Part shown: positions 499-43,500 of the stretch, in pieces
Position numbering within the stretch: position 1 is the stretch's first letter
Layout of the letters: every line of letters begins with the position of its first letter
From: Callorhinchus milii
Taxonomy: Eukaryota
Direction of reading: 5' to 3'
Assembly (NCBI RefSeq): GCF_018977255.1
Contig: NW_024704742.1
Coordinates: 108,378,001-108,442,000, forward strand
Length of the DNA stretch: 64,000 bases
Program-made: the position numbers and the translations under genes
Notes under the pieces: model-generated
What the model was told of the DNA's origin: nothing
The model's database searches: none
The model's input: only the letters and a program-made list of their open reading frames with translations

Positions 499-1005
499 CC
501 CTCACATTAAATTATTACACAGTCACATTAAATTATGTCCTGTGAAGCGCTATGATTCAGCCCCTTGATGTGAATTGTGTTCTATCAAATGTAATTATTT
601 ATTATTTATTTATTGAGAGTGGTAGAATATAAGATCTTCTAAAAGGTATTGCTGAAACGGTACTTATTCTCCAACGCTGAGCTGCTCCTTACTACACCAG
701 CAGTAATTTTCCCACTTCCCACACCAGTCATCTTTTTGGCCTTTCTAAGCAATTTTGTGCCATGATTGTTAGCACTTCCGTGTCTAATAGGAGTGATGGG
801 GGCTCGTGTGAGTAATAAACACTAGCGTGGACTAGTTAGGCAAAATAGGCTGTTTCTGTGCCTTTTGTGTTTTGAGTTGAGTTTGTTGATTCGGTCCATT
901 AGAAACCGAATTGATGAACTGATTTCATGCAGGACACACACAACCAGCAGAAAAGGGAGTCTTTCATCCTGGGATGGATGTTAGCTTGAGTCCCAGAGGT
1001 TAAAA

Positions 1006-3740
1006 TCCCTTAAAATCCTCCTCCTCTACCGGCCCCCTAAAACCTCTCCCACCTTCATCTCTGACATTTCAACACTCCTCACATCTCTTTGCCTCTCCTC
1101 TGATCGCCTCATCATCCTGGGCGACTTTAACCTACACTTCACCCCCTCCTGCTCCATCTCCACAGACTTCTCTTCCCTGCTCTCCTCACTCAACCTTTCC
1201 CTACACATAAACTCCCCCACTCACAGTCACGGCCACCCACTCGATTTGGTGATCACCCGGGGCCTCAGTGTCTCGGATGTCACTATTACCGACAAGGCCA
1301 TCTCCGACCACTACTTCATCTCCTTCACCACCTCCACCCCCCTCCCCACCTCCACCAGACCCACCACCATCTTCTACCGCCCTTGGAAGAAGTTACCCCC
1401 ACAATCCCTAACCGATGCCTTGGAGTCCTCTGAACTCCTCTCCCTCTGGCCTTCAACCCTCACCGACCCCTCTTCTCCTCTCTCCCTCCTCCACAATATC
1501 CTCTCCTCCACACTCGATACTCTTGCCCCCATCACTTCCCGCACTGTCTCCTACTCCCGCTCCTCCCCCTGGTACACCACCCACCTCCGCTCACTGAAAT
1601 GCCAGGTGCGGGCTGCTGAGCGCACCTTTGTCAAATCCGGCTTAACGGTCCACCGACAAATCTGGCTGGACCTCCTCAAAATTTACCGCTCCACTCTAGC
1701 CTCGGCCAAGTCGTCCTTCTACTCCAGGATAATCCTGGAGGCGAAGAACAACCCCAGGCTACTGTTTTCCACCACATCCCGACTCCTCCGTCCCCCCCGC
1801 CACCCCGCGCAGGTCATCTCCTCCAACCTTCACTGCGAGGAGATGCTGGATTTCCTTGAATCCAAGATCAAGGGAATCCGCTCCGCGGTCACTTCCCCTC
1901 CAACTTCCACCCACCACCCACCCCTTCCCTCCCACACTCCGACTCCTACCCATCCTCCCCTACACACCTTCGTACCCGTTTCCCCACCCTCTGTCACTGA
2001 ACTCATCCTATCCCTAAAACCAACCACCTGCTCCCTTGACCCCATCCCCACTCCACTCCTTATCTCCCAGCTCCATTTTCTTGCCCCACACATCACTGAC
2101 ATCATAAACCTGTCCCTCTCCTCTGGCTCTGTCCCCATTCCATTAAAAACTGCCATCATCACGCCCACCCTGAAAAAACCCTCCCTTGATGCGTCGCAGC
2201 TATCAAGCTACCGGCCCATCTCCAACCTCCCCTTTCTCTCCAAGGTCTTGGAAAGAGTTGTCGCCTCCCAACTGCGCTCTTTCCTCTCCACCCATTCTCT
2301 TTTTGAACCCCTTCAGTCAGGTTTCCGTGCTGCTCATAGCACAGAAACTGCCCTGGTCAAGGTCACCAATGATATCCTGACCATCTGTGACCAGGGCTCC
2401 CTCTGTCTCCTCGTCCTCCTCGACCTATCGGCAGCATTCGATACGGTCGACCACGCTATCCTACTCCACCGCTTGTCCTCCCACCTCAACCTTCAAGGCA
2501 CTGTCCTTGAATGGTTTAGCTCTTACCTTTCCCACCGTCTTCACTTCGTCTCAACGAATGGCTTCTCCTCCACCCCCCGTACTGTCTCATGTGGTGTCCC
2601 TCAGGGCTCTGTCCTCGGTCCCCTCCTCTTCACCCTCTATATGCTCCCCCTCGGTGACATCATCCGCAAACATGGGGTTAACTTCCACATGTATGCGGAT
2701 GACACCCAACTCTACCTTTCCTCCTCTACTCTCAACTCCACGACCACCGATGTCCTGACAGCCTGCCTGTCCGACATCGAGTCCTGGACGAGAGACAACT
2801 TTCTTCAGCTCAACGTGCGAAAAACCGAGGCCCTCCTGATTGGCTCACGTCAGCGCCTCCGCACCTCAGGCGCTGACACCATCAGCATCCAAGGCTGCAC
2901 TCTCCACCTCTCAAAGCCAGTCAGGAACCTCGGCGTTTTGTTCGACCCTGAGCTGTCCTTTCTCCCTCACATCCGCACCACAACTGGCACCGCCTTCCAT
3001 CACCTCCGGAATATCGCCAGATTACGGCACTACCTCACCCCTCACGCTGCTGAAACCCTGGTTCACGCCTTTGTCACCTCAAGGCTGGACTATGGGAACT
3101 CTCTCCTCGCCGGCCTTCCCGGCACCTCCCTCCACAAGCTGCAGGTCATTCAGAACTCTGCAGCTCGTGTACTGTCCCGCACCAGGCTTCGGGACCACAT
3201 CACTCCCACCCTCGCTCGCCTCCACTGGCTCCCCATCCCCCAGAGGATTGATTTCAAGATCCTCATCCTCACCTACAAGGCCATTCACGGCCTTGCTCCC
3301 TCCTACCTCTCCAACCTACTATCCCCCTACCTACCTGCCCGTACCCTCCGTTCCTCTGGCTCCGGTCTGCTCCACGTCCCCCGCCCCAACCGCCCTACTA
3401 TCGGTGGTCGGGCCTTCAGCCTCTCAGCCCCGAGGCTCTGGAACTCCATCCCCCAGTGCCTTCGCCTTGCTTCCTCCCTTTCCTCCTTCAAGGCCGGTCT
3501 CAAAACCTTTCTCTTTGACCGTGCCTTCAGCTCCCCTCTCGACTCTCTTCCTCCTCCTCGCTCCCTCCCTTCCCTCCCCTCACCCTGACCATTTCCCCCC
3601 TCCTCTCTCCCTCCCTTCCCTCCCCTCACCCTGACCATTTCCCCCCTGCTCGGGTCATGACCCAACTGTGCAGCGCCTTGGGACGTCCTCCTGACGTGAA
3701 AGGCGCTCTATAAATGGAATCTTGTTGTTGTTGTTGTTGT
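1006..3740 (+). mobile_element. L2-clade LINE, 5'-truncated, uninterrupted ORF2 (APE endonuclease C-part, reverse transcriptase, L2 C-terminal domain)
   Basis: Open frame from about 1009 to 3588 with [39 protein letters not shown] and LHWLP; 3' UTR ends in a (TTG)n tail. Confidence 0.95.
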
Positions 3741-4498: not shown

Positions 4499-11625
<7,127 letters not shown>

Positions 11626-16846: not shown

Positions 16847-18346
16847 ACTTTTTTAAATATTATTATGATTGATTATTATGATCATATATTATGTGGTTAT
16901 TTTATTATTATGATTGTTCAATTAAAATGACATGATAATAATAATTATTGATATAACACCAACAAGATCTAACAAAAAATGCACATAAAGGTACTTTCAT
17001 GAAATAATCTTTCCCAGTTAATGAATAATGTAGTTAATCTGTGTCGAGTAAGCAGCACACTGACACAACTTGCTAGTTCACACACTCTGCCACAGAATGC
17101 TTGGCTGTGGGCTTGTCCCCACAATTCCTAGCACAGAGTTGCTGATCACAACCGTCTCATCATTAAACCATAGAAAAGAGGATAGGTGCTTGCCACAAGG
17201 ACGCATGAAGATAGTGGAGAATCATCCCAAATTGCTCAAATGTACCATCTAGTGCTCAGTTTATGAACAGCAGACACAGAGCGCGGTGGAAGCAGGTGAC
17301 CTTCACACATCTGGGTAGGGTGGGGGATGAGGTGCAAGGCAAGGGGGAAACGAAGAAGAGAAATAAATTGCATGAGTAATGGGAAGTTGTTGAAAAGAAA
17401 ATTATATTTCTATTCCCTGAAATGCACCACAAACATTGCAGAGCTTTTTAATTTGAAAATGTGTTTCCTCATTATAATTAATGACAGCAATTTGGAAAAA
17501 ATACATTATAAAATAATTGATTTCCTGATTATGGGAAGGTTTAATTGGAAATGAGCAGCTTAATTAATGTGTGCACGAATAATCCTGTTAAGATGTCAAA
17601 TCCAGACCTAATTGCATCCTGAGATCCAGGAAAGAATGAAGAATGTTTTTATAGTGAGTTATGTCGAAAGATCTTGAAGGACTTCAGAAGTAAAAACAAT
17701 ACTGTCAAATGTAATCATTATAGTCAGATACTAGTAAACCGAATGTCCAGATATGCGGATATACCATGGAAGCGTAGCACAATACAAAATGACATTTGTA
17801 TAGCGCCTTTCATGTCGGGAGGACGTCCCAAGGCGCTGGTACATCAGATGTGTAGTATACTCTCAGCTTCTGGTGCTGACAGGCTCCATACTTGCGTAAT
17901 GCAGTGATGTCAGCAGTGACCTTACGACCCATTTTATAATATAATGTCATTATGTGGGAGATGATCTTATGGACCCAATCATCACTGTATTTTGTAAATA
18001 AATGTTTAGAAATGCTTCCAATTCAAGAATTCAAGATAAAAAAAACAACTTAAGAGGAACTGATCTTTCAATTGGAATAAACAAGATATAATTGTACATC
18101 TAATTCAACTAAAGAATCTTAATCTGGAATTAAAAGACAATATGTAATCTTCTTAAGAAATATAGATGCACTTTGAGCAAAATGTGGATTACAAAAGAAA
18201 ATTAAAATTGGTATCTTAATACCAGAATCCGATGTGATCTAAATTACATTTGTTTACATTCAGTTTCACATGAATGCAACACTTCCTTGCATTATATTTT
18301 AAAATTATCTAGGGAACGTTCTGATAACAAAAGCTACATATGTCAG

Positions 18347-18503
18347 TCAACAGCTGTTTGTAAAGAGCCACGGAGGTTTTGCTTGAACACCATTGAGAAG
18401 TGGCTTCAGCAAACTTTGTCGAGCCACATGAGCCACCTCATCCCAAGCATTGCTGGTTTCACAGACATTGAAGGTGGGGTTAGCTGGATCCAAAATAAAA
18501 GGT
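18347..18503 (-). CDS. ZnF-OAS last coding exon
   Basis: [52 protein letters not shown] then TGA. Confidence 0.92.
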
Positions 18504-21500
18504 CTGGAATTGAGAAACAATGAAATCTTAAACAACAAAAAAATCACTTTATAACTTCAAAACATTATTTTTATTATAAAACATCAAAATAAATCACCTT
18601 TAGAAACATTTCAATTCATATTAATCTTAACTGAATTGAAAGTCTTCAGGAATTGAGAATCTGAATCATAGAGTAAACTTTTTTTTTGGTCAGCCTGACA
18701 CACGCGGGAAGCAAACACCGTGCTTCAGAGTGTCCGAACCAAGCTGAGATTTCCATGCATCCCATCTACACATGGAAATCCCAGAGATAGATTGTTGGAA
18801 TGGAATGCACACTTTCTCCCTGGAGGGACACATCCTGTTTACCTAATTCCAGAAACTATTAGGCGCAGTTTGGCAAAAGCCAAGGCTTGGGGACCCCAGA
18901 GTGTGCGTTGGGGTAACTGCTGGAGTCTAAAACGACATCGCTTGCCATGTGGAGTCCTGTAGCTCAGTGGTTAGAGCACTCGCTTTGCAAGCGAGAGACC
19001 TGAGTTCAATTCCAGGCAGGGCGAAACCTTGGGCAAGTTTCCATACTCCACACGCCTAATAATAATCCCTCCAAAACCAAAAACAATAATAAATTGGTCA
19101 TTTTCAATCTACGACTGTTTGTGGGACATTGCTGTGCGCAATTGGCTGCCGCGTTCACCCACAAATATAGTCAATTCACTTTACAGTGTGTTCTGTGAAG
19201 CGCTTTGGGACGTCCTCCCGACGTGAAAAGCACTATATCAAATGCAAGGATTATTATTATTATTATTGATATCACTTTCTGACAAGCTTTTCCTGCTCAA
19301 CTTCTTCTAACATAAAGAATGGACAGAGAAAATGTCATTCAGTGGACCACATATCATCAATACTATCATGACTTTCATCCCACTATCCTTGATACTTTCA
19401 CTCACAAAAACTTGCACTTATATAGCGCCCTCCACACAGAGTAGGATATCAGAGCACATCTCCTTCCTCCATCACTAGGGCTGCAGATTGTTCACGGTGG
19501 GAAAAAAATTCTGTCTATCTGTGAAAAAACCTGCTGTTCCGCACATTTCCCTCATTAACCTTGAGAGAGGCCCGCGCATGCAAAGGATCCATTATTCCTT
19601 TGGATATTTCTCCCTCTAAGTTTCCATGTATCCTACTAACCTTGATTCCAATTAAGAACAAACTGTTGTATAGATTCAGGACAGATTCCAAGTTAGCAAC
19701 AGAGGATCTAAAATCCAAGTCCTCAAATAACGAGGTTGTAAAATAATACCACATTGGCAGAATTCTTTTCTAAAAGACAACAATAACAACAGCTTGCATT
19801 TATATAGCGCCCTTCACGCCGGCCGGTGTCTCAGAGCACTTAAGTCCAAAAACTGGTGTCTTACATTGATAATCTTTGATGTACACAAAACTATTAGATA
19901 AATCTAAGCGGCTTATGTATCAACCAGAAAACACACAATACTCTCTCCTCATTGATCACCAGGAATCAAAAAGAAAAAGAAAGTATTTTAATTTTCTGGG
20001 TATAAAACTGATCGGGTCAGTACACATGCCCGCTCTCATGTTTGCTCAAAATTAGAACTGTCTTTAATATTTTTCTGAATGAAAGCAAAGACCAAACTTG
20101 AACTTAGTTCAAATTTGTACTTTGGATTTCCTGCTAGTTCACAGTGCTCACCTGGTTTGTTTCTGAACTGACTTCTTCACAATCTGAAATGTCTCATCAT
20201 AGTGTTCAAACCAAATAATGCAAATATCAGTGCAATTCACCAGGAACTTGAATACTGCTCGCAGTCCTTGGACAAAACTAAAAAATATAGGCTTTCCTGC
20301 CAGCTGCCAAACATAGATGGTCATGAGTTCCATTGCATAGGATGAAGGAAGCCTCCGGAATCTGTGAATGGATATTAAAATGGCTCAGGAATTTGTGATT
20401 TCAGTAATAGCAAGACAAAAGGATTCTTGTATCCAATATTGGCACTAGCCCAAGCTGAAAGATCAGCATCTTAATACCAATAATCTTACTGCAGAATAAC
20501 TCACCTGGCTTCAACCCAGTTTAAACACCTTTAATCTAGTAACATTCAACTTCTCTGTCTGTGGGGAGTTGGATGGGTATAATAACAACAATTTATATTT
20601 CCACAACGCCTTTCACATGGGGAGGACATCTCCACATGCCTGATAATAAACCCTCAAGAAAAAAAACAATAATAAAAAAATTGGTCACTTAAATACACGA
20701 CTGTTTGTGGGACACTGCTGTGCACAATTGGCTGCTGTGTTTCGCCCACAAATATACAGTCAACTCACTTTACAGTATATTCTGTGAAGGGCTTTGAGAC
20801 GTCTAGAAAACGTGAAAAGCGCTATATCAAATGCAAAGATTATTATTACTATGATTATTATTATCTCAAAGCGCTTCACACGCTTGAGGTGGGGGAAGCT
20901 GACCACTTGGTGAGCCAAAAAGACTAATAGTCTATTTCTGCCTGAACACGTGAACAAATTCATCATCAGGAGGACCTTGTGGTCAGGCATCTAAAATCAA
21001 TGACACTGTTTGACTAAAAGTCAACCAGCAGAGATCTGAGATGAACTCAGTAACACAGAAGGCAAACAACATGTTTCCAAGTTACAATTTAGATTTATAG
21101 AACACATTTTTCGTTCTCAAAGTGGAAAGCATTCGGTCTAATTTGGCTAATGTGGGTGAGCAGGCCTAACCTTGCTCATTTAAAAAAAAGCCTTTAAAGT
21201 CGGGAGGCCATCTCAAAGAGTTCAGTGGAATGTAAGCGCACTGAATACATCTATCGATGATGATGGTTGCTCAGGGTTACACGAGAATTGGTCGTAAAAT
21301 ACAAAATGCAGGACTGCAATGATACTAATCAATTTAATTGCAGCTGCAGGATACATTTATTGAAAATAATAATGTTATAAGTAAAACTCTGATTGCAAAT
21401 CTTGACAGACCTGTTGGTTTCACTGGGTTTAGCAAGAGAGGTTTTGAACCAATATTTAACCAGACGAATCATGTCCTTCACACCAACAGTCGATGCCTTT

Positions 21501-24500
21501 ACAAAATCCACCTGGTATTGCAGTAGAGAGACCGAATAAAGCTGTGTTTCTAAATCATCCCCACAATTGTACAGTCGTCGATATAAGCTCTTTTTAACAT
21601 CTGTATATTAATAAAATATTTGAGTTAAAATTAAACAACAACCAGGAAAGAGAGAAATAAAACAATACATGGCTGCCGCAGTCTAAACATTTCTGTCCAT
21701 TATAATAATAACAAAAATATTTGTTATACCCAATAAATAAGAGAGAGGGCTTTCATTCTTCACTCTGGGCTGATTGCAATGCAGTTCCCAGAGCAACAGC
21801 TTTTTACTAGCTTTGTATAAAAATAATTTTGAAGCTAGTGATTCTGAAAGCATGTGGGAAATAAATTAATAAAACAAAACAACTTAGATTTATATAGCAC
21901 CCTCCATGCCAGACAGCGCCTCAGAGTGCTTCACGGTAATAGATCCTGGGGCTGAGCCAGGGGGAGGGGTGGAAGGTGATCAAAGGCGCGGTCGAAGAGA
22001 AAGGTCTTCAGCCGAGACTGGAAAATAGGAAGCAAGGGGGCGAGGCGAAGGGAGTGAGGAAGGGGCATAGTGGCTGAAGGCACGGCCCCCGATGGTGCAG
22101 CGGAGGATTCGAGGGACAAGGAGGAGGCCCCCAGTGGAGCGAAGGCAACGGGCACTGTTGTGAGGAGAGAGGAGGTCAGAGGGGTGGGGAGGGGGGGTGC
22201 AGAGGAGTGGAGAGATTTGAAGACAAGAGTGAGGATCTTGAAGTCGATCCTCTCTGGGACAGGCAGCCAGCGCAGTCTGGCAAGGACTGGGGTAATCGGG
22301 GAGCGGAGTCTGGTGCGGGTAAGAATGCGGGCGGCAGAGTTTTGGAATGGTAGTGGAGGGGAGAAAGCAACTAAAGTGATGCAAAGTAGTGACTCTCAAT
22401 TCATGTCACTTGTAATGTTTATTTTAATAACTCTCACAAGTTGTTAAATCAGTGATTTCATCAGTACTGGCAGTTTAAAGAAATATATTCAGAAAGTTAT
22501 AACGTTTCAAAAAAGATTCTATGGAAGTTTCTTAATCTGAAGACAATTTGATCTAAGTGTTTGTTAAATCTTTAAAGAAAATTAACTTAATCTCATTAGA
22601 CAAATAATTGTATTTCTGTTTTCATGTGTTGACTAATTCTAGAAACTAATCATCCTCTAATTTTAATTTGTAATGGCATTAGAGTCTTAGAATCTCAAAT
22701 CCACCGGAAGTCTGAAATTCTTCATGGTTTGGGGTTTAAGATTATAGTTTTAAAATTTAACATTGTGCAAAGTTTGGAAAGTTGTTAAGTTCCGTCTTAA
22801 TCAAAGGTAAGTTTTTCACAGTTCATTTTTTGTAAGGTACAGAATACCAGCTTCCAAATTAAGACTGAAATGGAGAGATTTCTAAAATAGGCGGCAGCCT
22901 GGCTCAGTGGCTTGCGCTCTTGCCTCTGAGTCAGAAAGCTGTGGCTGAAACCCTACTTTGAGCTCATAGTTCAGGCTGACTTTCCAAAGCAGTGTTGGGG
23001 AAGGGCTACATTGTTGGAAGTTTCTCCCAATGGCTTGGCCAACAATCCCCCAAATAAAATTGGTCATTCACCTCATGGTGATTTGTGGGATATCATTTTG
23101 TGTAAATTGGCTGCTAAGTTCGCCTATGAATAGTCAATATAGATGGAGTTCTGTAGCTTTAGTAGTTAGAGCACTTGCCTTGCAAGCGAGAGGACCTGGG
23201 TTTGATTTCCGGGCAGAGTGAAATGTTAGACAGTTTCCTTACTCCACACTCTTCTGGTTACCTAGCAGTAAGTAGGAGCCCGGTTGTTAGTTGATTGGTG
23301 GATCACTTTTCCAGAGGTAATAATCCCTTCAAATTTTTTAAAAAAACAATAAGAATAATTTGGTCACTCTCCACGACTGTTTGTGGGACACTGCTGTGCA
23401 CAATTGACTGCCACATTTCGCCCACAAAATCAATTCACTTTAGTTCACTTCACAGTATATTCCGTGAAGCGCTTTGAGACATCTTGAAGACTTGATAAGA
23501 TGCTGTATCAAATGTAAGGATCAGAATTATTATTATTATAAAATGCTTTGAGGTATCTCAATGGTCTGATAGGTGGATATCAAATACAAGGATTATTAAA
23601 ATCCTGCATTATCTGAAATGTTAAAACAATAGCCTCAAGTCTAAGACGTGACCAGGCTCTTTAGGGCTCGATCAAAGAAGGGTCCTGCAGCTTCTGTTAC
23701 AGAACTTGAGATAATAAAGGAAGCCTGAGGCTTAGCCACATGGCAGACTCGCAATCTGTAGATAAAACACTCCAGCTGTTAAGCACGGCGACGAAGAGAC
23801 CATGTAGTCATTTCCTGAGCAGGTTGGAAACCTTGAGCGAAAGAGTGGGATAGAAGGGATGCAAGAGACTGACCGCATTCTCAGGTACCTGCACCCCTCC
23901 AGTTCTGTCAGTGGTAGAGTCTGATCTGTCTCCTTTAGGGATACTGGAGACCACTAAGATTTTCTTCCATATTAATAAACCACTTGGTTCGAGAACCTAA
24001 TCTGTCGCCATGTGCATTTAGGATCTGTCTGGCTCGAGTGGCTGGCAGGCATGTGTTACAGCATAAAACATGTCAACCAGATCAACAGAGTATGTTCAAA
24101 GCTTGGCAATTCCAAAGATTACAACTTAAGTTGTGTCCTTAATAATATGAATCAGCTTTAGGGATACAGTTGTGCTGGAAGAGGAGGAAATATGTTGTTA
24201 GGTGAAGAGAAGACAACACAGTGGAAAGAGAAAAATGGGACCTGACAACTTATTGGAGAGACTACCAAGAGGTAAGTGCATTGTAAATAAATTCTTCCAA
24301 AAGTTTAAAATATTTCCAGGAAAAGTGGTGATTTTAAATGGCTGGCCATCAGAAGATATTGATGAAACTCTCAGAATTGTCTCAGCCTCTCAAAACATTT
24401 TCTTTTCAAATGTTTACATTTTTCCTTTCAATGTGTTAGCTGCAGAAAAGTTCACATCACAAACGAACAATACAAACTAACACACAAACCTCGGGGAGGA

Positions 24501-27500
24501 TTGGATCCTAACATATCACAGCAAAGCATGACATCAAAATGGTGAATGTGCAGATCTTTGATGCACTTGAACTGAAATCGAAGAGAAACTGAAGCCTTCT
24601 TTTCTATCAATATCCTAAGGTGAGAACATAAGTTTAAGCAGAATTATATAAAACCAGGCACACTTGCTATTTAAGCTTTTTTTGTACATTTTCCCCACTG
24701 CACATTTTAGCCTCAGAAATGGAGAGCAAGTGTCAGCTTAGAAACAGCAACAAGAACAACAAATTGCTTTTATATATAGCACCTAACACATCAGGAGGAC
24801 GGTGTATATAGGAAGGCCCTGGACAATGAGGAGTTTGTACCCAAGCTGTGGCCTGGGATCAGAGAGGAGTGGAGGGCAAGGGGTGGGTGGAGGAGCAAAA
24901 ATGACTGAAGGAACAGTCAAAAACGTCTTGAGATAGGTGTTGAAGGAGTCAAGGGAGGCGAGGAGGAAGGGCTCTGGGATGGAGTTCCAGAGGGTGGGTC
25001 AGAATGGCTGAAGAACAAATGTTTAATAACAAAACAGCTTGAGACCTATACCAGGACTGGGTCATAATATAAAGTGACATTGCAGTGGGAGTTCTATATT
25101 GTCAGAGGTGCCATAGGCAAATGCTTTCTTGTTTTGTCACCATTTAATGCAAAGTAGCAGTTCCAGAATCTATGGTATTCACTGGGTCCTGGGATAACTT
25201 GTTAACCTCATAAAATCTGCATCAGCAAAACCAACCCTTCCAACCTCCTCTCATAACACATTATTATTAAATATCCCTTTGTCTCACCGATTTGTCAGCA
25301 GAGATTTCTTTAAATTTTTCTCCAGGCCTTCCAACATGGCTGACATTTTTTCTTTGCAGTCGCTTATGCTTGTGAACGAGTTACTGAACAACACAACATC
25401 GATATCTGACCAATCTCTGGTATCTGTGCCTTTGATATATGAGCCACCCTTTGAAGAAAGCAAAAATGTTCTCTCAAAACTGTCTCTTTACATAACTCAT
25501 CTGGCACCTGAGTAAGTAAATGCATTAACCAAAGCATGTGCATACAGACAATTTAAGTACATTACAGCGGATCAATTCCTGTACATACATTAATCAAGTC
25601 ATTCAGACATCAAATATATTAAGGATTTTGTACAGGCTAAACTACTAGGTTTATTTTGCACACAAAGATACACAGTTACTACACTTTAAATTGTTTCTTG
25701 TGAAGCTAGATGAAACATCCTCCTGATGTCAAAGGCTCAATATCAAATACAAGGATTCTTATCATTATTATTTCATACTTAATTTATAAGAAACTCTGTT
25801 TAAAATGAACACTTTTTTTTCAGAGGGATAGAGCAGATTAGATTTGATTGTTTTGAAACACATATCACCCCTTCTTGGGTTTTATTGAGAATGATAATTA
25901 CATTTACAATCTGATCAGGATTTTGTTCAAAACCCTTGAAAATGGTAATTTTCACACTATACAAGAATTGCGTGCAACAGTAAATTGCCTCTTTCCCCAT
26001 AGTACACTCTTAATTTCTTTTTAAATTAAGTAAGACTCATTGTCTACACTTGGTTACCTTGGTGAGTCGAGTCACAGATGTTGGACAACATTCTTGAATC
26101 AAGTCAATGAGTTTATCTACTTCTTCAGCACAAGCCATTCTCAGGGGTCCCATTTCTGGTCGAAGGCAAGTTTCTACGAATTTTCGTAATAGCTGCAAGC
26201 TTCTGTGATCCAATATACTGTCTGGGGAGAATGCTGTTGACATTCTTGCTACAAAAACATTATCAAAAATCCTAATTAAAAGTTTAAATGGGAAACTACA
26301 AAATTCAATTTATGATTTCTTCTTAAGAGTTTTTTTATACATTGCTGATTTGTCAATATTCAGAACATTGCCAATTTGAATCAGGATCAGATACTTCAAA
26401 TGGATCTTTCATTACCCATTGTATTTCTATCCCTATAAACTGGTTTTAGAAGAAATGATAATGATGGAATCAGAAATTTTCAAGATTGTGGATAAAAATT
26501 ATATGCTTTGTACTACAGCCCCTTTGATTCACTCATAATTCAATCTGAACAACCACCAAAAATACTGCTAAAGAAAACATATTTTACCCCAAAAATACTT
26601 CTGGGCCCAAAACAAACTGTTGCTCTTATCCAGTTAAAATTTGGCAGAGGACTGAGCGGGCGCTGACATTTCCTAAATGATCAGTTTGAAGGAGGTTTTA
26701 CTTGTGTCTGAATTTTGTATTTAAGCATTGTGTCTAGCATTATAAAAGTCTTTTACAATAGAAATTGATGGAAAGTAATCCTCTTCACAAGACTTTCGTA
26801 CCTGGATTATGTATATGATCATCACCAGCGGCAAGTCATTTATTCAGATATTCAACTTGACCCCAAAAAGAGATTTAAGTTTTGCAGATGCTATCCGATG
26901 CCACATAAGTTTATTACGACAAGGGAATGATGCTGAATTTGGAGTACCTCTTTGACAGGCTGTAAAATGATGCTCTTGTCTCTCATGTTGCTCTCTGCTG
27001 TGGACAGTTCCAAACACTCTGTGACACATCCGACAGGTCACACACTTTTCAGATGCCACAAACCTGTCCTCTCTTTCCAAGGGTTGATCCCAGTATGGGT
27101 ATTCATTTAGTAGGTTACATTTATTCTTGTAATGTACAATCTACAGAGGAAGCAGAATATATTCAGTACAAACATTTTATTGTTCACGGTTATCAAGCAA
27201 AACATTTCTCTCATGACTGTCTCTTTACATAGCTCATCTTACATCTGAGTAGGTAAATGCATCACCCAAAACAGCACAAAGCCACGTAGAAAAGATCACA
27301 GGCTTAAATCCTGTTCTGTGTTGAATTAACTGATCTCAGCTGGGGCAATGGTTTGCATGGTACAATTGGCCTCACCTCCCAGCAGTGGAGGAAAAAAAAT
27401 CAGATTACTATCCCATTCTCGATCGCTAACCAGAGTCCACTGTTAGAGCAGTGGCAGGCAAGACAGGATGGAGCTTGGCTATGATTTCCCTTGGCAGTCA

Positions 27501-28200
27501 AACAGCCTGTCAATGCTCATTGTCAGATTTCATGCACTGTATTGAATTGTTTAGAGCACTCGCCTTGTAAGCGAGAAGACCTGGGTTTGATTCCCGGGCA
27601 GGGCAAAACCTTAGGCTCTTAGTCCTCTTACCCCACACTTCTCTGTTTACCTCGCAGTAAATAGGAACCCGGTTATTAGTGGATTGCTTTTCCGGGGGTA
27701 ATAATCCCTTCAAAATAAATAATAATTTGGTCGCTCAATCCACGACTGTTTGTGGGACACTGCTGTGCGCAATCGGCTGCTGTGTTTTACCCACAAAATA
27801 TACAGTCAATTCATTTTATAGTATAATCTGTGAAGCGCTTTGATGTCTGGAAGACTTGATAAAGGGTTATATCAAAAGCAAGGATTATTATTAATAATAA
27901 TGGCCATTTGTCCCACAATTTTGAATAGTGATCTCAAATTGCTGCAAATTTAAGTTTTTGGTAATCTCTAACTTCTTGACTTGTTTGAAGTTCTTCAGAA
28001 TGTCAGAATATAAAATTGGGAGAGAGTTTCTAAGTACATACCTGCTCATGTTCCTTCAGCTTCTCTCGGAGCATTTCAATCCCACACTTGTCACAATATA
28101 CTCTTCCAATATGTTTAGCTCGAAAATGATGCTTTAAGGCTGTTTGACTGGCAAAATCATTTCCACATCGCACACAGTTGTAGGATTTAATAGCCTGCAT
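18347..28200 (-). CDS. C2H2 zinc-finger / 2'-5'-oligoadenylate synthetase fusion protein (OAS-like), 8 coding exons, about 461 aa
   Basis: Exons 28200-28042, 27140-26948, 26248-26058, 25448-25288, 24614-24490, 21600-21411, 20361-20152 and 18503-18347. All introns are GT-AG, phases 0,1,0,2,1,2,2 are consistent, and the 1386 nt frame is open. OAS motifs: [53 protein letters not shown]. Three C-x2-C...H-x4-H fingers lie N-terminally. The true start may be further upstream. Confidence 0.92.
18949..19268 (+). mobile_element. tRNA-derived SINE with Deu-like core and L2-type tail
   Basis: Head GTAGCTCAGTGGTTAGAGCAC (A box), CTCGC-TTTGCAA-GCGAG arm (Ala TGC-like) and GTTCAATTCC (B box); core gtttgtgggacattgctgtgcgcaattggctgcc; (TTA)n tail. 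Confidence 0.9.
20152..20361 (-). CDS. ZnF-OAS coding exon 7
   Basis: [55 protein letters not shown], matching the OAS1_C domain. Confidence 0.93.
21411..21600 (-). CDS. ZnF-OAS coding exon 6
   Basis: [62 protein letters not shown]. Confidence 0.92.
21876..22345 (-). mobile_element. L2 3' fragment in an OAS intron
   Basis: [11 protein letters not shown] and [10 protein letters not shown] remnants plus an L2 tail. Confidence 0.85.
23143..23540 (+). mobile_element. tRNA-derived SINE
   Basis: Head, core and (TTA)n tail as above. Confidence 0.85.
24490..24614 (-). CDS. ZnF-OAS coding exon 5 (third catalytic Asp)
   Basis: [41 protein letters not shown]; phase 2 in, phase 1 out. Confidence 0.88.
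25288..25448 (-). CDS. ZnF-OAS coding exon 4 (P-loop and DxD)
   Basis: [25 protein letters not shown]; caaag acceptor, gtgag donor. Confidence 0.93.
26058..26248 (-). CDS. ZnF-OAS coding exon 3 (OAS N-terminal helices)
   Basis: [11 protein letters not shown]...VTRLTK|gtaacc, equivalent to OAS1 LDKFIEDYLLP...VSKVVK, with the same phase-0 intron before GGS. Confidence 0.9.
26948..27140 (-). CDS. ZnF-OAS coding exon 2 (end of finger 2, linker, finger 3)
   Basis: tgtag|[64 protein letters not shown]|gtact; its IVH completes finger 2 across the splice. Confidence 0.85.
27549..27900 (+). mobile_element. tRNA-derived SINE in the intron between the zinc-finger exons
   Basis: Head, core and tail as above. 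Confidence 0.85.
28042..28200 (-). CDS. ZnF-OAS coding exon 1 (finger 1 and first part of finger 2)
   Basis: [53 protein letters not shown]; donor CAG|gtatgt; acceptor ttttagtag near 28256-28264. Confidence 0.82.
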
Positions 28201-28589
28201 TATTCTGTGATAAGTTGATCTTTCTGAAGACTGTTCCAATAATTCAGTACATCTTCTACTAAAATTGGATAAACAAAGATATTTTGAATGAAAATAGTAA
28301 AGTAACAAATTGAATGGAGATTCAATTTTATTATGGAGAAATGTTTAATATCTGCAACCTGGACAGACATTGGCTGTTCACTTCATGACTATTTGTGGGA
28401 TTGATGTGCACAAATTGATTCCCAGCTATACACAGCCATAACACGACACAGTGTTTTTGGATGAAGGACGTTACAACTTTATAGCTGTATCAAAATGAGA
28501 GGATTATTAATCTGCATTAACTTAATTGATTTTAACCAGGTTGACAGCCAAGTTGATCGACAGATTGGTAGTTTAGACACCACAACTGG

Positions 28590-30424
28590 TCTTAGTATCC
28601 ACACCGGACGGCGTCTCAGAGCACTTCACAGTAACGGATCCCGAGGCCAAGCCAGGGGGAGGGGGAGGAAGATGACCAAAGGCGTGGTCGAAAAGAAAGG
28701 TCTTCAGAAAGGACCTGAAAGAAGGAAGAGAGGGGTCGAGACGAAGGGAGTGAGTAAGCAAATTCCAGAGCCTCGGGGCATAGTGGCTGAAGGCACGGCT
28801 GCTGAGGGTGGAGCAGAGGACTCCGGGGACAAGGAGGAGGCCAGACCCGGAGGATCGAAGGCAATGGATGCTGTTTTGGCTTTTCCTCCAGCCCCCACAC
28901 CGCACCTCAGGCGCTGACAGTATTAGCATCCAAGGCTGCACTCTCCACCTCTCAAAGCCAGTCAGGAACCTCGGTGTTCTGTTCGACCCTGAGCTGTCCT
29001 TTCTTCCTCATATCCGCGCCACAACTGGCACTGCCTTCCATCACCTCCGAAACATCGCCAGACTACGGCACTACCTCACCCCTCACGCTGCTGAAACTCT
29101 GGTCCACGCCTTTATCACCTCAAGGCTGGACTATGGGAACTCTCTCCTCGCCGGCCTTCCCGGCACCTCCCTCCACAAGCTGCAGGTCATTCAGAACTCT
29201 GCAGCTCGTGTACAGTCCCGCACCAGGCTTCGGGACCACATCACTCCCACCCTCGCTTGCCTCCACTGGCTCCCCATCCCCCAGAGGATCGAATTCAAGA
29301 TCCTCATCCTCACCTACAAGGCCATTCACGGCCTCGCTCCCTCCTACCTCTCCAACCTACTATCCCCCTACCTACCTGCCCGTACCCTCCATTCCTCTGG
29401 CTCCGGTCTGCTCCACATCCCCCGCCCCAACCTCCTTACCATCGGTGGCCGGGCCTTCAGCCTCTCAGCCCCGAGGCTCTGGAACTCTATCCCCCAGTGC
29501 CTTCGCCGCCTCCTCCCTTTCCTCCTTCAAGGCCGGTCTCAAGACTTTTCTCTTTGACCGTGCCTTCAGCTCCCCTCTCGACTCTCTACCCCCTCCTCGC
29601 TCCCTCCCTTCCCTCCCCTCACCCTGACCATTTCCCCCCCAATGCTCGGGTCCTGACCCAACTGTCCAGCGCCTTGGGAGACGTCCTCCCGACGTGAAAG
29701 GCGCTCTATAAATGGAATCTTGTTGTTGTTGTTTTGAGGAGAGAGGAGGTCAGAGAGGTAGGGGGGTGCAGAGGAGTGCAGGGATTTGAATACAAGAGTG
29801 AGGATCTTGAAATCGATCCTCTCTGGAATAGGCAGCCAGTGCAGTCTGGCAAGGACTGGGGTGATCGGGGAACGTAGTTTGGTGCGGGTGAGAATGCGGG
29901 CGGCAGAGTTTTGAATGATTTGGATTTTATGGATAGTGGTGGATGGGAGACCGGCGAGGAGGGTGTTAGAATAGTCCAGCCGAGAGGTGACAAAAGCATG
30001 GACAGGGTTTCAGCGGCTTTCGGAGAGAGGTATTTGTGGATGTGGGCGATGCGTCGGAGGTGGAAGAAGGCAGTGCTGGTGTGGGACCAGATGTGGGGGA
30101 GGAAGGATAATTGGGGGTCGAACCTGATGCCAAGGTTGCATACGGGTTCAGAGAGTTTTAGGGGGACGTCGGGTTGGTGGAGGAGGTGAGAGCCGTGGGA
30201 TTTGAGATGTTGACGAGAGCCAAAGAGTATGGCTTCCGTCTTATCGACTTACAGTTGAAGAAAATTAGCGCTCACCCAGCCCCTGAGGTCTGACAGGCAG
30301 ACTGATAGAACATCAGGGGACTGGGGGTCGCAAAGAGAGGTGGAAAAATAGAGTTGGGTGTCGTCCGCGTACATGTTGAAATGTACCCCATGTCTGCGGA
30401 TGACATCCCCAAGAGGGAGCATGT
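28590..30424 (-). mobile_element. Older L2 subfamily copy split by the nested insertion (28590-28878 and 29734-30424)
   Basis: Minus-strand YADD, HWLP and FKTFLFD segments; the joined halves match the uninterrupted copy near 22140. Confidence 0.85.
28899..29733 (+). mobile_element. 5'-truncated copy of the young L2, nested in an older L2
   Basis: Highly similar to 2859-3735; TGTTTTG duplicated at 28872-28878 and 29730-29736. Confidence 0.92.
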
Positions 30425-40500: not shown

Positions 40501-43500
40501 TGCTCTTTCTCTGTACTCTGTAATACTGTTTCTCCAAAAATATTTACCCAATTCCCTTTTAAGTTAATGATCTTAGTCCAATAATGCACAAAGAATGCAT
40601 GAGCTCAAATGTTATATTTTATGTTCAGAATATAGTTGGTAAAATATGATGTTCTAAATATAAATGAATGCACCAACATTTAGCATTGTGTTATACCAAT
40701 AGGATTAATAGAATATGGAAGCCCATTTGGAAGCCATTAAAGAAGAATCTTTCTTTAAGGACGAATGCAGTCTCATATGCTCTATATCCCTCCAGAACTC
40801 AAATCTGTAGCAATCAGAAATAAGCCAGTAATCTTTCTATATTTGGAATGCTGAAGGGCATCAAAATAAACAAGGGATGTTCTCAATATTATATTCAGGC
40901 CTGGGTGTGAATAGTCTCATTTGTCAGAAATAATAAAGAACATTGTTTAACAGTGTAATTAAATGCTTGTTCAATTATTTTATTCTCATTAGCTTTTAAT
41001 GGATATGCAATCGTGGCGTGGTATCAGTTACATTCACATCAATTACCGTTTTCACAACGTGTTTCTCACATTCATTTACATGATTGTTTATTTTACCATC
41101 GCAGTTTCTAGGCATGAGAATGCATGGTAGAGATGGTGTTCTACAAACCAGACCAGCTGTTTGACGTTTTCGGTGTTTGCCAAAGCCATCAGGATTTTGT
41201 GTTTCTCTGAATCCAACTGCAAATGAGTGTACACCTTCAGAGAGAAATCCCAACCCTCTGAGGTACGAGATCCAATCATGAAGACTGTGCTTATGAGGTC
41301 CGTAGGTAAGCTGAAATTGCAAATTAAAACAACATTGAACACGTGAAAAACTGAAGAGCTGTGAAAGTTAATAAGATGTGGAGACGTTATAATAATAATC
41401 CTTGTATCAATTATCCTTGTACAGCTTTCACACTGGGACCTCTATGTCCTGTAGGAGTCTTTAATGTCTGCCGACATATTCAAGTGGGACCTTGGTTTGA
41501 CATCTCATCTGAAGGGTGACACCTTGAACAATGCAGAGCTCCCCCAGTACAGTAATGGGGTGTCAGCCTAAACTGTGAGTTCAAAGTCTTGATGCGGGGC
41601 TTGACCTTGCAACTTCCTAACTCAGAGGTGAGAGCTATCAAGTCAACCAGACTGACACCAAATTATCTATGCAGACCAGCTAAAGTAAATGTTGGGAAAC
41701 ATTGGAAACTATGGAACCTCAAAATAAGGAGTGAGCATAAAAAGTTGTATTTTAAGGTTTAATTTTACTACAAAAGACATGTTGAATTAGTGCTCATAGT
41801 CGAGACACAAGAAAATAAATAGCCTGGATTCGTATTGCTGACTCCTCAATATGTTTGATGAGGTACAATACAATATCTATGAAGCGCTGTTCATGTCAGG
41901 AGGATGTTTCAAAATGCTTAACACAGCTGGCTGGTTAACTGAGTTAAGATGGATGCGGGCGAGAGTAGGAGGAGGACACACACAGATAAAGAGGGCAGGT
42001 GGTGGGGAGGGACACATGATCAAAAGCATGGTCAAGGAGGTAGGTATTAAGGCAAGTATTGAAAATAAATAGAATATTGTTATGGTAGGAAACAGTGAAT
42101 AGGTGTTCACTACAACTCATAACTAATAAAAGTACTATGTTGATACATAATGTGTCAGTGAAAACCCCAATGCAGGAGGATGATAACCATATAGGTGAAC
42201 TGGTTACTTACAAGTCTGTGGATTGCAATTTTGTCCAATTGTTAAATAGTAAGGTTGCATTCTGGATGCATTCATTATAGTCATAATTGCAAGCAGCAGA
42301 AAGAAGTGTGGAACGAAGTTGTCGTTCAGAAAATGATCCATTGTCACTCCAGGTTTGCTTATCGATCAGCTTTCCAAATAAGTCAAAGACGTTTTTCTAA
42401 AAACACAAAGATATATTTAGTCTAAGCAGTCCGCCCTAAATTAAGTCTTAATGGTTATTCTGAACTCGTATTTAACATTTTCTTTTCTCAAATACCACAC
42501 AAAACACTGATTATTCATCACAAATGTAACTGTTGGACCACCCCGCATTCAGATACTCAGATACTGAATTAATATACATTTGATACAATTAGAATTAGCA
42601 TTTTTTCTATGTTACTCTGCATGTGGCCCACAGAGGTCGGGGGGAGCAAGGCCATGGAGGGATTTGAAGGTGAGGACCAGGATCTTAAACTCTATCCTCT
42701 GTGTGATGGGAAGCCAGTGGAGTCGGGCGAGGATGGGTATGATAGGGTCACAGAGCCTGATGCGGGAAATGACACGGGCTGCAGAGTTCTGGATGATCTG
42801 CAGTCTATGGAGGGAGGAGTTGGGGAGACCGACAAGCAGGGAGTTTGCATAGCCAAGCCTTGATGCTATGAATGCATGTATGAGGGTTTTGGTGGCCTGT
42901 GGTGTGAGACAGTGGTGGAGCCGGGCGATGTTGCGGAGGTAGGGGAAGGCAGAGCGAATCATGGCACGGATGTGAGGTAGAAAGCATAGTTGAGGGTCAA
43001 ACAAGATGCAAGGTTCCTGATTGGCTTAGTAAGGTGGAGTGTGCATCCATGGATGGTGATGCTGTCAGCGCCTGAGCTGTGGAGGTGCTGACCGCAGCCA
43101 ATCAGGAGAGCCTCGGTCTAGTTGACGTTCAACTGAAGAAAGTTAGCTCTCATCCAAGACTTGATGTCTGACAGACATTCTGTCAGGACAGCAGTGGTTC
43201 CTGGAGTCAAGGGTGGAGCCAGAGAGATAGAGTTGGGTGTTATCCACATACATTTGGACGTTGGCTCCATGTCTGCAGATAATGTCACCAAGAGGGAGCG
43301 TATAGATGTTAAAGAGTATATAGATGTGGAGTCCTGTAGCTCAGTGGTTAGAGCACTGAGCTACATAGATGTGGAGTCCTGTAGCTCAGTGGTTAGAGCA
43401 CTCGCTTTGCAATCGAGAGACCTGAGTTCAATTCCAGGCAGAGGGCGAAACCTTGGGCAAGTTTCCTTACTCCACACGCCTAATAATAATCCCTCCAAAA

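Follow-up and report, generated by a model that had tools for sequence, protein, structure and literature searches.

A three-finger OAS gene of the ghost shark Callorhinchus milii and its placement with the ancient paralog OAS4

OAS enzymes form a textbook arm of antiviral defence, and the paralog OAS4, which is older than OAS1-3, has been kept from amphioxus to dog and horse and has been lost in humans. A locus of the ghost shark Callorhinchus milii raises the question of which kind of OAS carries C2H2 zinc fingers in front of its catalytic unit, and what these fingers might bind. The locus is part of a stretch of 64,000 nucleotides (nt) of contig NW_024704742.1 (108,378,001-108,442,000), called the window here, and all coordinates below are window positions. 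On the minus strand, with a coding span of 28200-18347, eight exons encode a protein of 461 amino acids (aa) in which three N-terminal fingers precede a single OAS unit. Splicing unites the finger exons with the OAS exons in one fused product. Judged from its sequence, the locus is almost certainly the C. milii ortholog of OAS4, also described as 'OAS1 in the ERAP2-RIOK2 region' (PMC9964502), and the finger-OAS architecture is held with the same near-certainty. The best overall explanation, an OAS4 ortholog with an RNA-directed finger module, is considered probable.

Gene model and splicing

The first-pass annotation of this DNA had proposed eight phase-consistent exons with an open frame of about 461 aa. 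The exons were rebuilt independently from the sequence and have the same junctions, with coding borders at 28200-28042, 27140-26948, 26248-26058, 25448-25288, 24614-24490, 21600-21411, 20361-20152 and 18503-18347, all on the minus strand. GT..AG borders are present in all seven introns, and the coding sequence of 1386 nt gives 461 aa followed by TGA. A second OAS copy was not found in the window: a tblastn search with the model returned the eight exons at E <= 2.7e-23 and 13 other matches, all at E >= 2.1.

Splicing was assessed by comparing the assembled contigs of the sequencing runs X1, X2, X3 and X6 (one organism, 13 runs) with positions 17800-28700. No run is on record as RNA, and X1-X5 are presumed to be RNA by guess only. 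An intron-less X1 contig of 1876 nt (minus strand, depth 25.3, same organism) joins all eight exons at the model borders. Its listed pieces represent seven of the eight exons (28042-28258, 26948-27140, 26057-26248, 25287-25447, 21411-21600, 20152-20361 and 18234-18503) and differ from the window at 8 letters. The record numbering is unbroken across the exon 1/2, 2/3 and 3/4 junctions. Record positions 1083-1206, not among the listed pieces, equal exon 5 in size, and exon 5 is joined to exon 4 in one X2 contig (24490-24613 to 25287-25447 in record 8). In addition, record positions 320-1876 of the X1 contig amount to 1557 nt, which is the exact sum of the eight exon pieces from 28258 to 18234. 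Because this contig joins the eight exons at the exact model borders, splicing does link the fingers to the OAS unit. Both junctions singled out in the first-pass annotation, 28042/27140 and 26948/26248, are spanned by this contig from a run presumed to be RNA. The DNA-like run X6, in which a fraction of 0.79 of the sampled words is present, is colinear through the introns, for example over 24969-27557 in one contig. The first 319 nt of the X1 contig match nothing in 17800-28700, so that the transcript must have at least one more 5' exon, upstream of 28700.

The first coding exon (exon 1, contig piece 28042-28258) encodes residues 1-53 from the ATG at 28200. Its acceptor AG lies at 28260-28259, and its part of the 5' untranslated region (UTR) covers 28258-28201. 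Finger 1 (C9 to H30, 28176-28111) and most of finger 2 (C36 to H51, 28095-28048) are encoded here. Exon 2 (26948-27140), whose contig piece follows directly after exon 1 in the record numbering, encodes residues 54-118, the last codon being split, and contains H56 of finger 2 (27134-27132), the linker 58-84 and finger 3 (C89 to H110, 27035-26970). The N-terminal helices of the OAS unit are encoded by exon 3 (26058-26248, contig piece 26057-26248), together with Met120 (26243-26241). Exon 4 (25288-25448, contig pieces in X1 and X2) holds the nucleotidyltransferase core with GGSYIKGT (25448-25425), D196 (25406-25404) and D198 (25400-25398), and exon 5 (24490-24614) holds the third catalytic Asp, D262 (24535-24533), within FDV. 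The OAS1_C domain starts in exon 6 (21411-21600; IRLVK at 21469-21455; Pfam OAS1_C 5.2e-7), continues through exon 7 (20152-20361; 3.1e-14) and ends in exon 8 (18234-18503; 3.6e-6), all three with contig pieces. Exon 8 also contains ILDPANPT (18496-18473) and the TGA (18349-18347), and its 3' UTR extends to at least 18234. A two-codon upstream open reading frame (ORF; ATG TAC TGA, 28253-28245, minus strand) is present in the 5' UTR part of exon 1, out of frame with the ATG at 28200.

The public protein of C. milii differs from this model at its N-terminus. XP_007891343.1 (P0215, 342 aa, window 26243-18347, minus strand) is the only C. milii protein found in the collection; it starts at Met120 (26243), is letter for letter identical to residues 120-461 and is without fingers. 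Initiation at this Met had been named in the first-pass annotation as an outcome that would overturn the fusion. The public model does start there, but the contig joins the finger exons in frame, and the public ghost-shark model is N-terminally truncated.

Family placement, distribution and active site

A tree was calculated from 55 OAS units, cut from named proteins by a family hidden Markov model (IQ-TREE quick mode, LG+G4, unrooted, with long-branch warnings and with the Shimodaira-Hasegawa-like approximate likelihood ratio test, SH-aLRT, as the only support). On one side of a branch with SH-aLRT 100 are 17 classical vertebrate units, namely those of OAS1, OAS2, OAS3, OASL and shark multi-unit proteins. 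On the opposite side, 28 chordate finger-OAS rows, including the window protein, form one group (SH-aLRT 99), and 10 invertebrate OAS rows are found there as well. The window protein lies outside the jawed-vertebrate OASa clade.

Two recent papers bear on the name of this group. In PMC9964502 (Vaccines 2023), OAS4 is called an 'evolutionarily ancient OAS paralog' and 'as-yet-uncharacterized'. Its locus corresponds to human 5q15, and it is described in amphibians, sauropsids and mammals; the name 'OAS1 in the ERAP2-RIOK2 region' is traced there to Wang et al. 2022 (Sci China Life Sci). According to PMC9964502, humans, bats and pangolins no longer have the gene, which persists in dog, camelids, other cetartiodactyls, elephant and mouse lemur, and a report cited by that paper adds a loss in rodents. 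Dog XP_038516678.1 and mouse-lemur XP_012629210.1 are labelled '= OAS4' in its Fig. S1. Both proteins begin with the same fingers as the window protein, and the camelid isoforms in that figure are without fingers. The dog protein belongs to the P0011 cluster, whose alignment with the catshark ortholog P0002 is full-length (E 7.2e-159), and dog OAS4 is 50-53% identical to the window protein.

The second paper, PMC10400998 (PNAS 2023), splits OAS into OASa, OASb and OASc. OASa is the group of jawed vertebrates, in which ubiquitin-like domains were originally attached to the OAS unit. OASb has a scattered distribution among animals, jawed vertebrates included, and an OASb is named from both C. 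milii and the caecilian Rhinatrema bivittatum; when these two were combined with RNase L in yeast, neither growth arrest nor rRNA decay was observed. OAS4 and OASb are very probably the same group, an equivalence that we infer from the tree position and from the Rhinatrema ortholog. The first-pass annotation had proposed a distinct OAS subfamily. This stands, in that its members carry three N-terminal fingers before a catalytically intact OAS unit and are set apart from classical OAS in the tree. The subfamily has already been named OAS4 and OASb, though it has not been characterised.

The fingers appear to have gone unremarked in these studies. The words 'zinc' and 'C2H2' occur 0 times in the main texts of PMC10400998, PMC9964502 and PMC6307210, and 'zinc' occurs 0 times in the supplement of PMC9964502. 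By titles and the starts of abstracts, no paper describing C2H2 fingers on OAS was found, and Wang et al. 2022 and the supplement of PMC10400998 may mention them. Some orthologs are auto-named 'C2H2-type domain-containing protein' in databases, so that the fingers are visible in public annotation. A literature search on the enzyme activity of mollusc OAS gave nothing useful.

The same architecture is widespread, as a search in other animals proposed in the first-pass annotation has now established for cartilaginous fishes, other vertebrates, amphioxus and Ciona. With exon 1 as query against longer proteins, 5 matches were obtained among 7 candidates, all five being OAS proteins from sharks that share this N-terminus and are 365-466 aa long. 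One shark ortholog is encoded in full (461 aa) by a contig of 1959 nt, which is too short for introns. Residues 1-117 of catshark P0002 gave 10 matches among 13 candidates, and all 10 (from sharks, coelacanth and three caecilians) are OAS-annotated or OAS-containing. An exhaustive phmmer search with P0002 gave 416 matches at E <= 0.001, several of them aligned from the first finger to the C-terminus. By name, these long alignments belong to canids (459 aa, 53% identity), Ciona intestinalis (473 aa), abalones and the hemichordate Ptychodera. The dog protein found 57 proteins at E <= 1e-20 among 7051 candidates. Those that carry a name come from mammals (cat, stoat, whale, horse, mouse lemur, moles, hedgehog, deer, goat, yak, camel, panda and an armadillo fragment), reptiles (turtles, alligator, lizards and snakes), amphibians (two newts and caecilians), fishes (bichir, a sturgeon fragment, coelacanth, sharks and Callorhinchus) and other chordates (amphioxus and Ciona). 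Human, mouse, birds, frogs and teleosts are not represented among the named entries of the 57 matches.

Full-length orthologs of 458-463 aa with fingers are present in dog, cat, stoat, horse, whale, deer, hedgehog and mouse lemur. The first-pass statement that mammalian OAS proteins have no N-terminal fingers is correct for human OAS1, OAS2, OAS3 and OASL, but not for dog, cat, horse, whale and other mammals. The combination of these three fingers with an OAS unit also occurs in amphioxus and Ciona. A shark-specific innovation is ruled out by the finger-OAS orthologs of bichir, coelacanth, amphibians, reptiles, mammals, amphioxus and Ciona. By pattern, N-terminal C2H2 fingers are also present in invertebrate OAS proteins of Ptychodera (3), abalones (2-3), Mercenaria (1) and one further contig (2), and none were found by pattern in OAS of Saccoglossus, Amphiura and Mytilus. 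Multi-unit proteins were seen as well: P0013 of Carcharodon carcharias (2277 aa) has four classical-type units, and P0012 of Amphiura filiformis (1247 aa) has three nearly identical OAS units on the OASb side of the tree.

A full and catalytically intact OAS unit had been claimed for the window protein, and this is borne out. The five motifs quoted for it are all present (GGSYIKGT 182-189, SDID 195-198, FDV 261-263, IRLVK 321-325 and ILDPANPT 413-420), and the catalytic G-S, D-x-D and D set is complete (G183, S184, D196, D198 and D262). In Pfam scans of single exons, NTP_transf_2 matches exon 4 (3.3e-5, 24.6 bits against a cut-off of 21) and OAS1_C matches exons 6, 7 and 8 (29.9, 53.4 and 27.1 bits against 19.9); whole orthologs match OAS1_C at 1e-32 to 1e-34. 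The catalytic motifs, FDV included, align with pig OAS1 via the catshark ortholog, whose sequence matches OAS2 (2.2e-49) and pig OAS1 (5e-35) in the PDB. The distance from ILDPANPT to the C-terminus at 461 is 41 residues. No ubiquitin-family Pfam domain was found in the window exons or in the ortholog scans, and no DZF or TUTase Pfam domain in the ortholog scans at the thresholds used.

The fold was examined on an AlphaFold model of catshark P0002 (78% identical to the window protein, 24-sequence alignment), which has a mean predicted local distance difference test score (pLDDT) of 80.6 and a predicted template modelling score (pTM) of 0.73. The model contains three beta-beta-alpha fingers (helices 19-30, 45-56 and 100-111), a linker 59-87 with pLDDT < 50 and a short helix 115-122 between finger 3 and the OAS unit. 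The top Foldseek matches are pig and human OAS1 (E 1.6e-17, template modelling score 0.76-0.80), followed by OASL, OAS3 and OAS2. Far behind are CD-NTases, TUT7 (1.7e-5), CCA-adding enzymes and the DZF domains of NF90-NF45 (2.5e-5).

Conservation was counted in 24 full-length orthologs aligned with the window protein, and the catalytic G, S and K are kept in 24/24. The three carboxylates D-D-D are present in the window protein and in 15 of the 16 non-mammals. The caecilian Geotrypetes seraphini (P0010) has Asn at the third catalytic position (L-N-I for F-D-V) and keeps the ligands of fingers 1-3. All eight mammalian orthologs (P0011, P0178, P0179, P0180, P0181, P0182, P0185 and P0186) have Glu at the first and third catalytic positions (E-D-E; E-A-E in hedgehog). 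This Asp-to-Glu shift suggests altered or lost catalysis in a branch where the gene has often been lost. In the ghost shark, the OAS unit would probably be an active nucleotidyltransferase.

The zinc-finger module and its possible ligands

The three fingers read from their patterns in the first-pass annotation are confirmed at the level of single residues. Finger 1 (residues 9-30) is C9-x2-C12-x12-H25-x4-H30, finger 2 (36-56) is C36-x2-C39-x11-H51-x4-H56 and finger 3 (89-110) is C89-x2-C92-x12-H105-x4-H110. H56 is the third codon of exon 2, and finger 2 is therefore completed across the 28042/27140 splice. The His spacing is H-x4-H in all three fingers; finger 3 has an extra His one residue further, which is not conserved in Ciona, amphioxus and bichir. 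Finger 1 follows the classical Y-x-C-x2-C-x3-F-x5-L-x2-H pattern, and finger 2 opens with C-[DE]-K-C-G, which hardly varies among orthologs. As had been noted, a TGEKP-type linker of seven residues is missing and one linker is long: fingers 1 and 2 are separated by five residues (I-G-R-V-Y) and fingers 2 and 3 by a 32-residue spacer, which has pLDDT < 50 in the catshark model. Between finger 3 and the N-terminal OAS helix there is a tether of about 15 residues. The finger module as a whole is mildly basic, with 20 K+R and 15 D+E.

The module is, as far as the compared sequences tell, an ancient feature of the whole family. All 12 zinc ligands are invariant in 10 vertebrate sequences, which goes well beyond chance. 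In the 24 orthologs, the ligands of finger 1 are complete in 24 and those of finger 3 in 23, being broken in mouse lemur. Those of finger 2 are complete in 16, and one has been lost in each of dog, cat, stoat, deer, a tortoise, a snake and the two newts. In similarity to the window protein, the finger region and the OAS part are about equal, with identities of 81% vs 78% in catshark, 50% vs 53% in dog, 45% vs 46% in amphioxus and 40% vs 42% in Ciona. The best-conserved N-terminal piece is finger 3 with its tether of about 15 residues (58-85% identity to the window protein, compared with 16-63% for the linker 58-84).

In the explanation favoured here, residues 1-57 form a tandem C2H2 pair, followed by a linker of about 30 residues that is disordered in the catshark model. 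Some 15 residues then link the highly conserved finger 3 (89-110) to the N-terminal helix of the single OAS unit with its G-S...D-x-D...D set. The fingers would serve as an extra module that binds nucleic acid, RNA most likely, and recruits the enzyme to its ligand or switches it on there, and this ligand would be other than the plain dsRNA that is sufficient for OAS1. Judging by the negative yeast test of the ghost-shark and caecilian OASb proteins (PMC10400998), the product would act independently of RNase L. RNA is favoured as the ligand because the OAS family is RNA-activated, because finger 3 lies about 15 residues from the OAS helix and because the module is mildly basic. Weak leads in the same direction are a match to the RNA-editing protein MP42 in the PDB profile search (1.8e-5) and the ESM Atlas, in which the nearest feature clusters of residues 1-120 include the zf-met and zf-C2H2_jaz families with scores of 0.89-0.91. 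RNA binding by the fingers may thus be put forward tentatively, as a serious possibility and not as the expected outcome.

Several results weigh against this explanation or some part of it. Fingers 1-2 have their best PDB profile matches in generic DNA-binding tandem C2H2 proteins (Aart 5.5e-9, ZNF568 5.9e-8, SNAI1 6.4e-6 and ZBTB17 1.4e-5). The best score for finger 2 is a zf_UBZ match covering residues 34-52, which is cut short by the end of exon 1. The Atlas matches share 93-120 of 256 features, which is under the reliability level of the tool. At E <= 0.05, zf-C2H2_jaz matches 1/24 and zf-met 2/24 orthologs, and neither matches the window exons at E <= 1 in the per-exon Pfam scan. These counts, with the H-x4-H spacing, speak against the likeness to JAZ/ZNF346-type fingers drawn in the first-pass annotation. 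Finger 2 is degenerate in 8/24 orthologs and cannot be essential everywhere. The structure model is that of the catshark ortholog, which stands in for the window protein. The run behind the spliced contig is only presumed to be RNA, and an intron-less contig could in principle be a retrocopy, though just 8 letters differ. The negative RNase L test could also reflect low or no activity or a finger-less construct. Finally, the strict pattern of the interferon-stimulated response element (ISRE), GAAANNGAAAC, was found 0 times in the window, with 0.94 expected; looser patterns were untried, and the promoter and first transcript exon were not located. Interferon control is therefore not indicated.

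Other functions of the fingers have to be considered against these data. If they bound DNA, the protein could be a DNA- or hybrid-sensing nucleotidyltransferase of a cGAS-like kind, or a nuclear factor. The profile matches of fingers 1-2 to classical tandem arrays and the classical pattern of finger 1 fit this, but matches to C2H2 arrays are generic, and the linkers do not fit: no TGEKP-type linker is present, the one between fingers 1 and 2 has five residues and the spacer before finger 3 has 32, predicted to be disordered in the ortholog. Also, the helix positions -1, 2, 3 and 6 of finger 1, read by eye, are occupied by S, T, A and H, residues ill suited to reading bases, and DNA binding is considered unlikely. 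A protein- or ubiquitin-binding adaptor, in which a UBZ-type finger 2 docks the enzyme on ubiquitin chains or a partner as a counterpart of OASL, finds its argument in exon 1. The Pfam matches of this exon to C2H2-type families are all under their cut-offs, and zf_UBZ (1.1e-5) comes closest with 25.4 bits against 25.6, compared with 23.5 against 27 for zf-C2H2_4 (7.7e-5); the nearly invariant C-[DE]-K-C-G start adds to this. However, zf_UBZ is matched at E <= 0.05 by 2/24 orthologs, leaving 22 without it, a ligand of finger 2 has been lost in 8/24 while fingers 1 and 3 are constrained, and the spacing is H-x4-H. Such an adaptor is quite unlikely.

The strong conservation of finger 3 with its tether, relative to the linker, and the pTM of 0.73 for the whole ortholog chain would also suit an intramolecular regulatory or structural module, which would pack on the OAS unit and gate its activity or drive oligomerisation with no external ligand. 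Here, the setting apart of fingers 1-2 by a low-confidence linker argues the other way, and this reading is judged very unlikely. Most improbable of all, and by now largely refuted, is that the finger exons lie outside the main product, with translation from Met120 and the upstream frame as a leader or minor isoform. It has the 342-aa public model in its favour, but exons 1 and 2 are in frame with exon 3 in the intron-less contig, the 5' coding region is open with its zinc ligands kept from Ciona and amphioxus to mammals, and the shark contig of 1959 nt encodes 461 aa.

A broader reading goes beyond the OAS4 ortholog with an RNA-directed module. The three-finger module could be the ancestral state of animal OAS, with OAS4/OASb sensing a class of ligand other than plain dsRNA and signalling via a receptor other than RNase L, and with classical OAS having lost the fingers and gained ubiquitin-like domains. 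The ligand may then be, for example, structured or modified RNA, an RNA:DNA hybrid or a ubiquitin-marked complex, and the published RNase L negative may have missed activity through a finger-less construct or the wrong ligand. This scenario is regarded as unlikely.

Chromosomal neighbourhood and comparison with known systems

The neighbourhood was covered by a Pfam scan of 210 of the 246 stop-to-stop ORFs of at least 62 aa, the 36 inside the gene region being left out. LIX1 (limb expression 1) lies at 4499-11622 on the plus strand, with Pfam LIX1 matches of 4.9e-23, 9.6e-21 and 1.2e-30 on ORFs 4499-4777, 6952-7395 and 11302-11622, and is convergent with the 3' end of the OAS gene. An ERAP/LNPEP-type M1 aminopeptidase gene lies upstream of the OAS gene on the same minus strand (41091-57933). 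ERAP1_C is matched on its ORFs 41091-41441, 42211-42396 and 45739-45996 and Peptidase_M1 on 51930-52160, 54046-54252 and 57739-57933, and its 5' end may extend past the scanned matches. RIOK2 is absent from the 64-kb window. The human gene order of the ERAP2-RIOK2 region was used for the locus match. The LIX1 and ERAP-like flanks match the 5q15-type OAS4 locus published in PMC9964502.

Repeats were also observed. A very high-copy intronic repeat has four copies of an 83-nt core (18954-19272, 20659-20861, 23335-23417 and 27704-27786) and reaches word depths of up to 1e5-1e6 in all runs compared. It looks like a tRNA-derived short interspersed element, and one copy has a tRNA-Ala-like head (ARAGORN, 18954-19023). 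A second, G+C-rich family with copies 81-92% alike is found in intron 5 (21960-22344) and upstream of coding exon 1 (28656-28758 and 29761-29913), and inverted repeats of 266 nt are present at 29102-30003. Elsewhere, a LINE-type retrotransposon ORF of 867 aa (985-3585, plus strand; RVT_1 1.6e-36, Exo_endo_phos_2 1.4e-6) lies in a G+C-rich block (GC 0.52-0.55).

The window itself is ordinary: it holds an intact ortholog of a named gene in the expected chromosomal neighbourhood, and not a new architecture. What is new is the finger module as an ancient and family-wide feature, the truncated ghost-shark model and the mammalian Asp-to-Glu shift in the active site. The naming papers treat OAS4 as a bare OAS unit, and the conserved three-finger module provides a concrete experimental handle in the form of full-length versus finger-less protein. 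The truncated public models, which comprise the 342-aa ghost-shark protein and the camel isoforms of PMC9964502 Fig. S1, may bear on the negative RNase L test.

Of the systems already described, OAS4 comes closest; its dog and mouse-lemur proteins share with the window protein the same three fingers, about 50-55% identity over the full length, the same tree group and the same type of locus. In contrast to the Asp of the window protein, mammalian OAS4 has Glu at the first and third catalytic positions. The published range of OAS4 (amphibians, sauropsids and mammals in PMC9964502) is extended here to cartilaginous fish, bichir, coelacanth, amphioxus and Ciona. OASb, as delimited in PMC10400998, lies outside the OASa clade, and the window protein falls there in the tree; Rhinatrema has a full-length finger ortholog. 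If the ghost-shark construct in the yeast test of that paper followed the 342-aa public model, it had no fingers.

Human OAS1 (4IG8) and pig OAS1 (1PX5/4RWN) share with the window protein the single OAS unit, the fold and the G-S, D-x-D, D, IRLVK and LDPA-PT motifs. OAS1 needs only dsRNA for its activation and acts through RNase L. It has no N-terminal fingers and lies on the opposite side of the deepest split in the tree. OASL likewise combines an OAS unit with a non-catalytic accessory module, which is C-terminal and ubiquitin-like in OASL and consists of N-terminal zinc fingers in the window protein. Human OASL is inactive according to PMC10400998, and the window protein keeps all catalytic residues.

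Outside the OAS family, the window protein can be likened by architecture to ZFR/NF90 (DZF) and TUT1/4/7, and by fold similarity to NF90-NF45 and TUT7 at the values given above; with no DZF or TUTase Pfam domain in the ortholog scans at the thresholds used, it is not a member of either group. JAZ/zf-met fingers have a long His spacing (H-x5/6-H), in contrast to the H-x4-H of the window fingers. In ZFR/NF90 and TUT1/4/7, C2H2 fingers are also placed ahead of a nucleotidyltransferase fold of the Pol-beta type. DZF domains are catalytically dead and TUTases add to the 3' ends of RNA, whereas the OAS signature is complete in the window protein.

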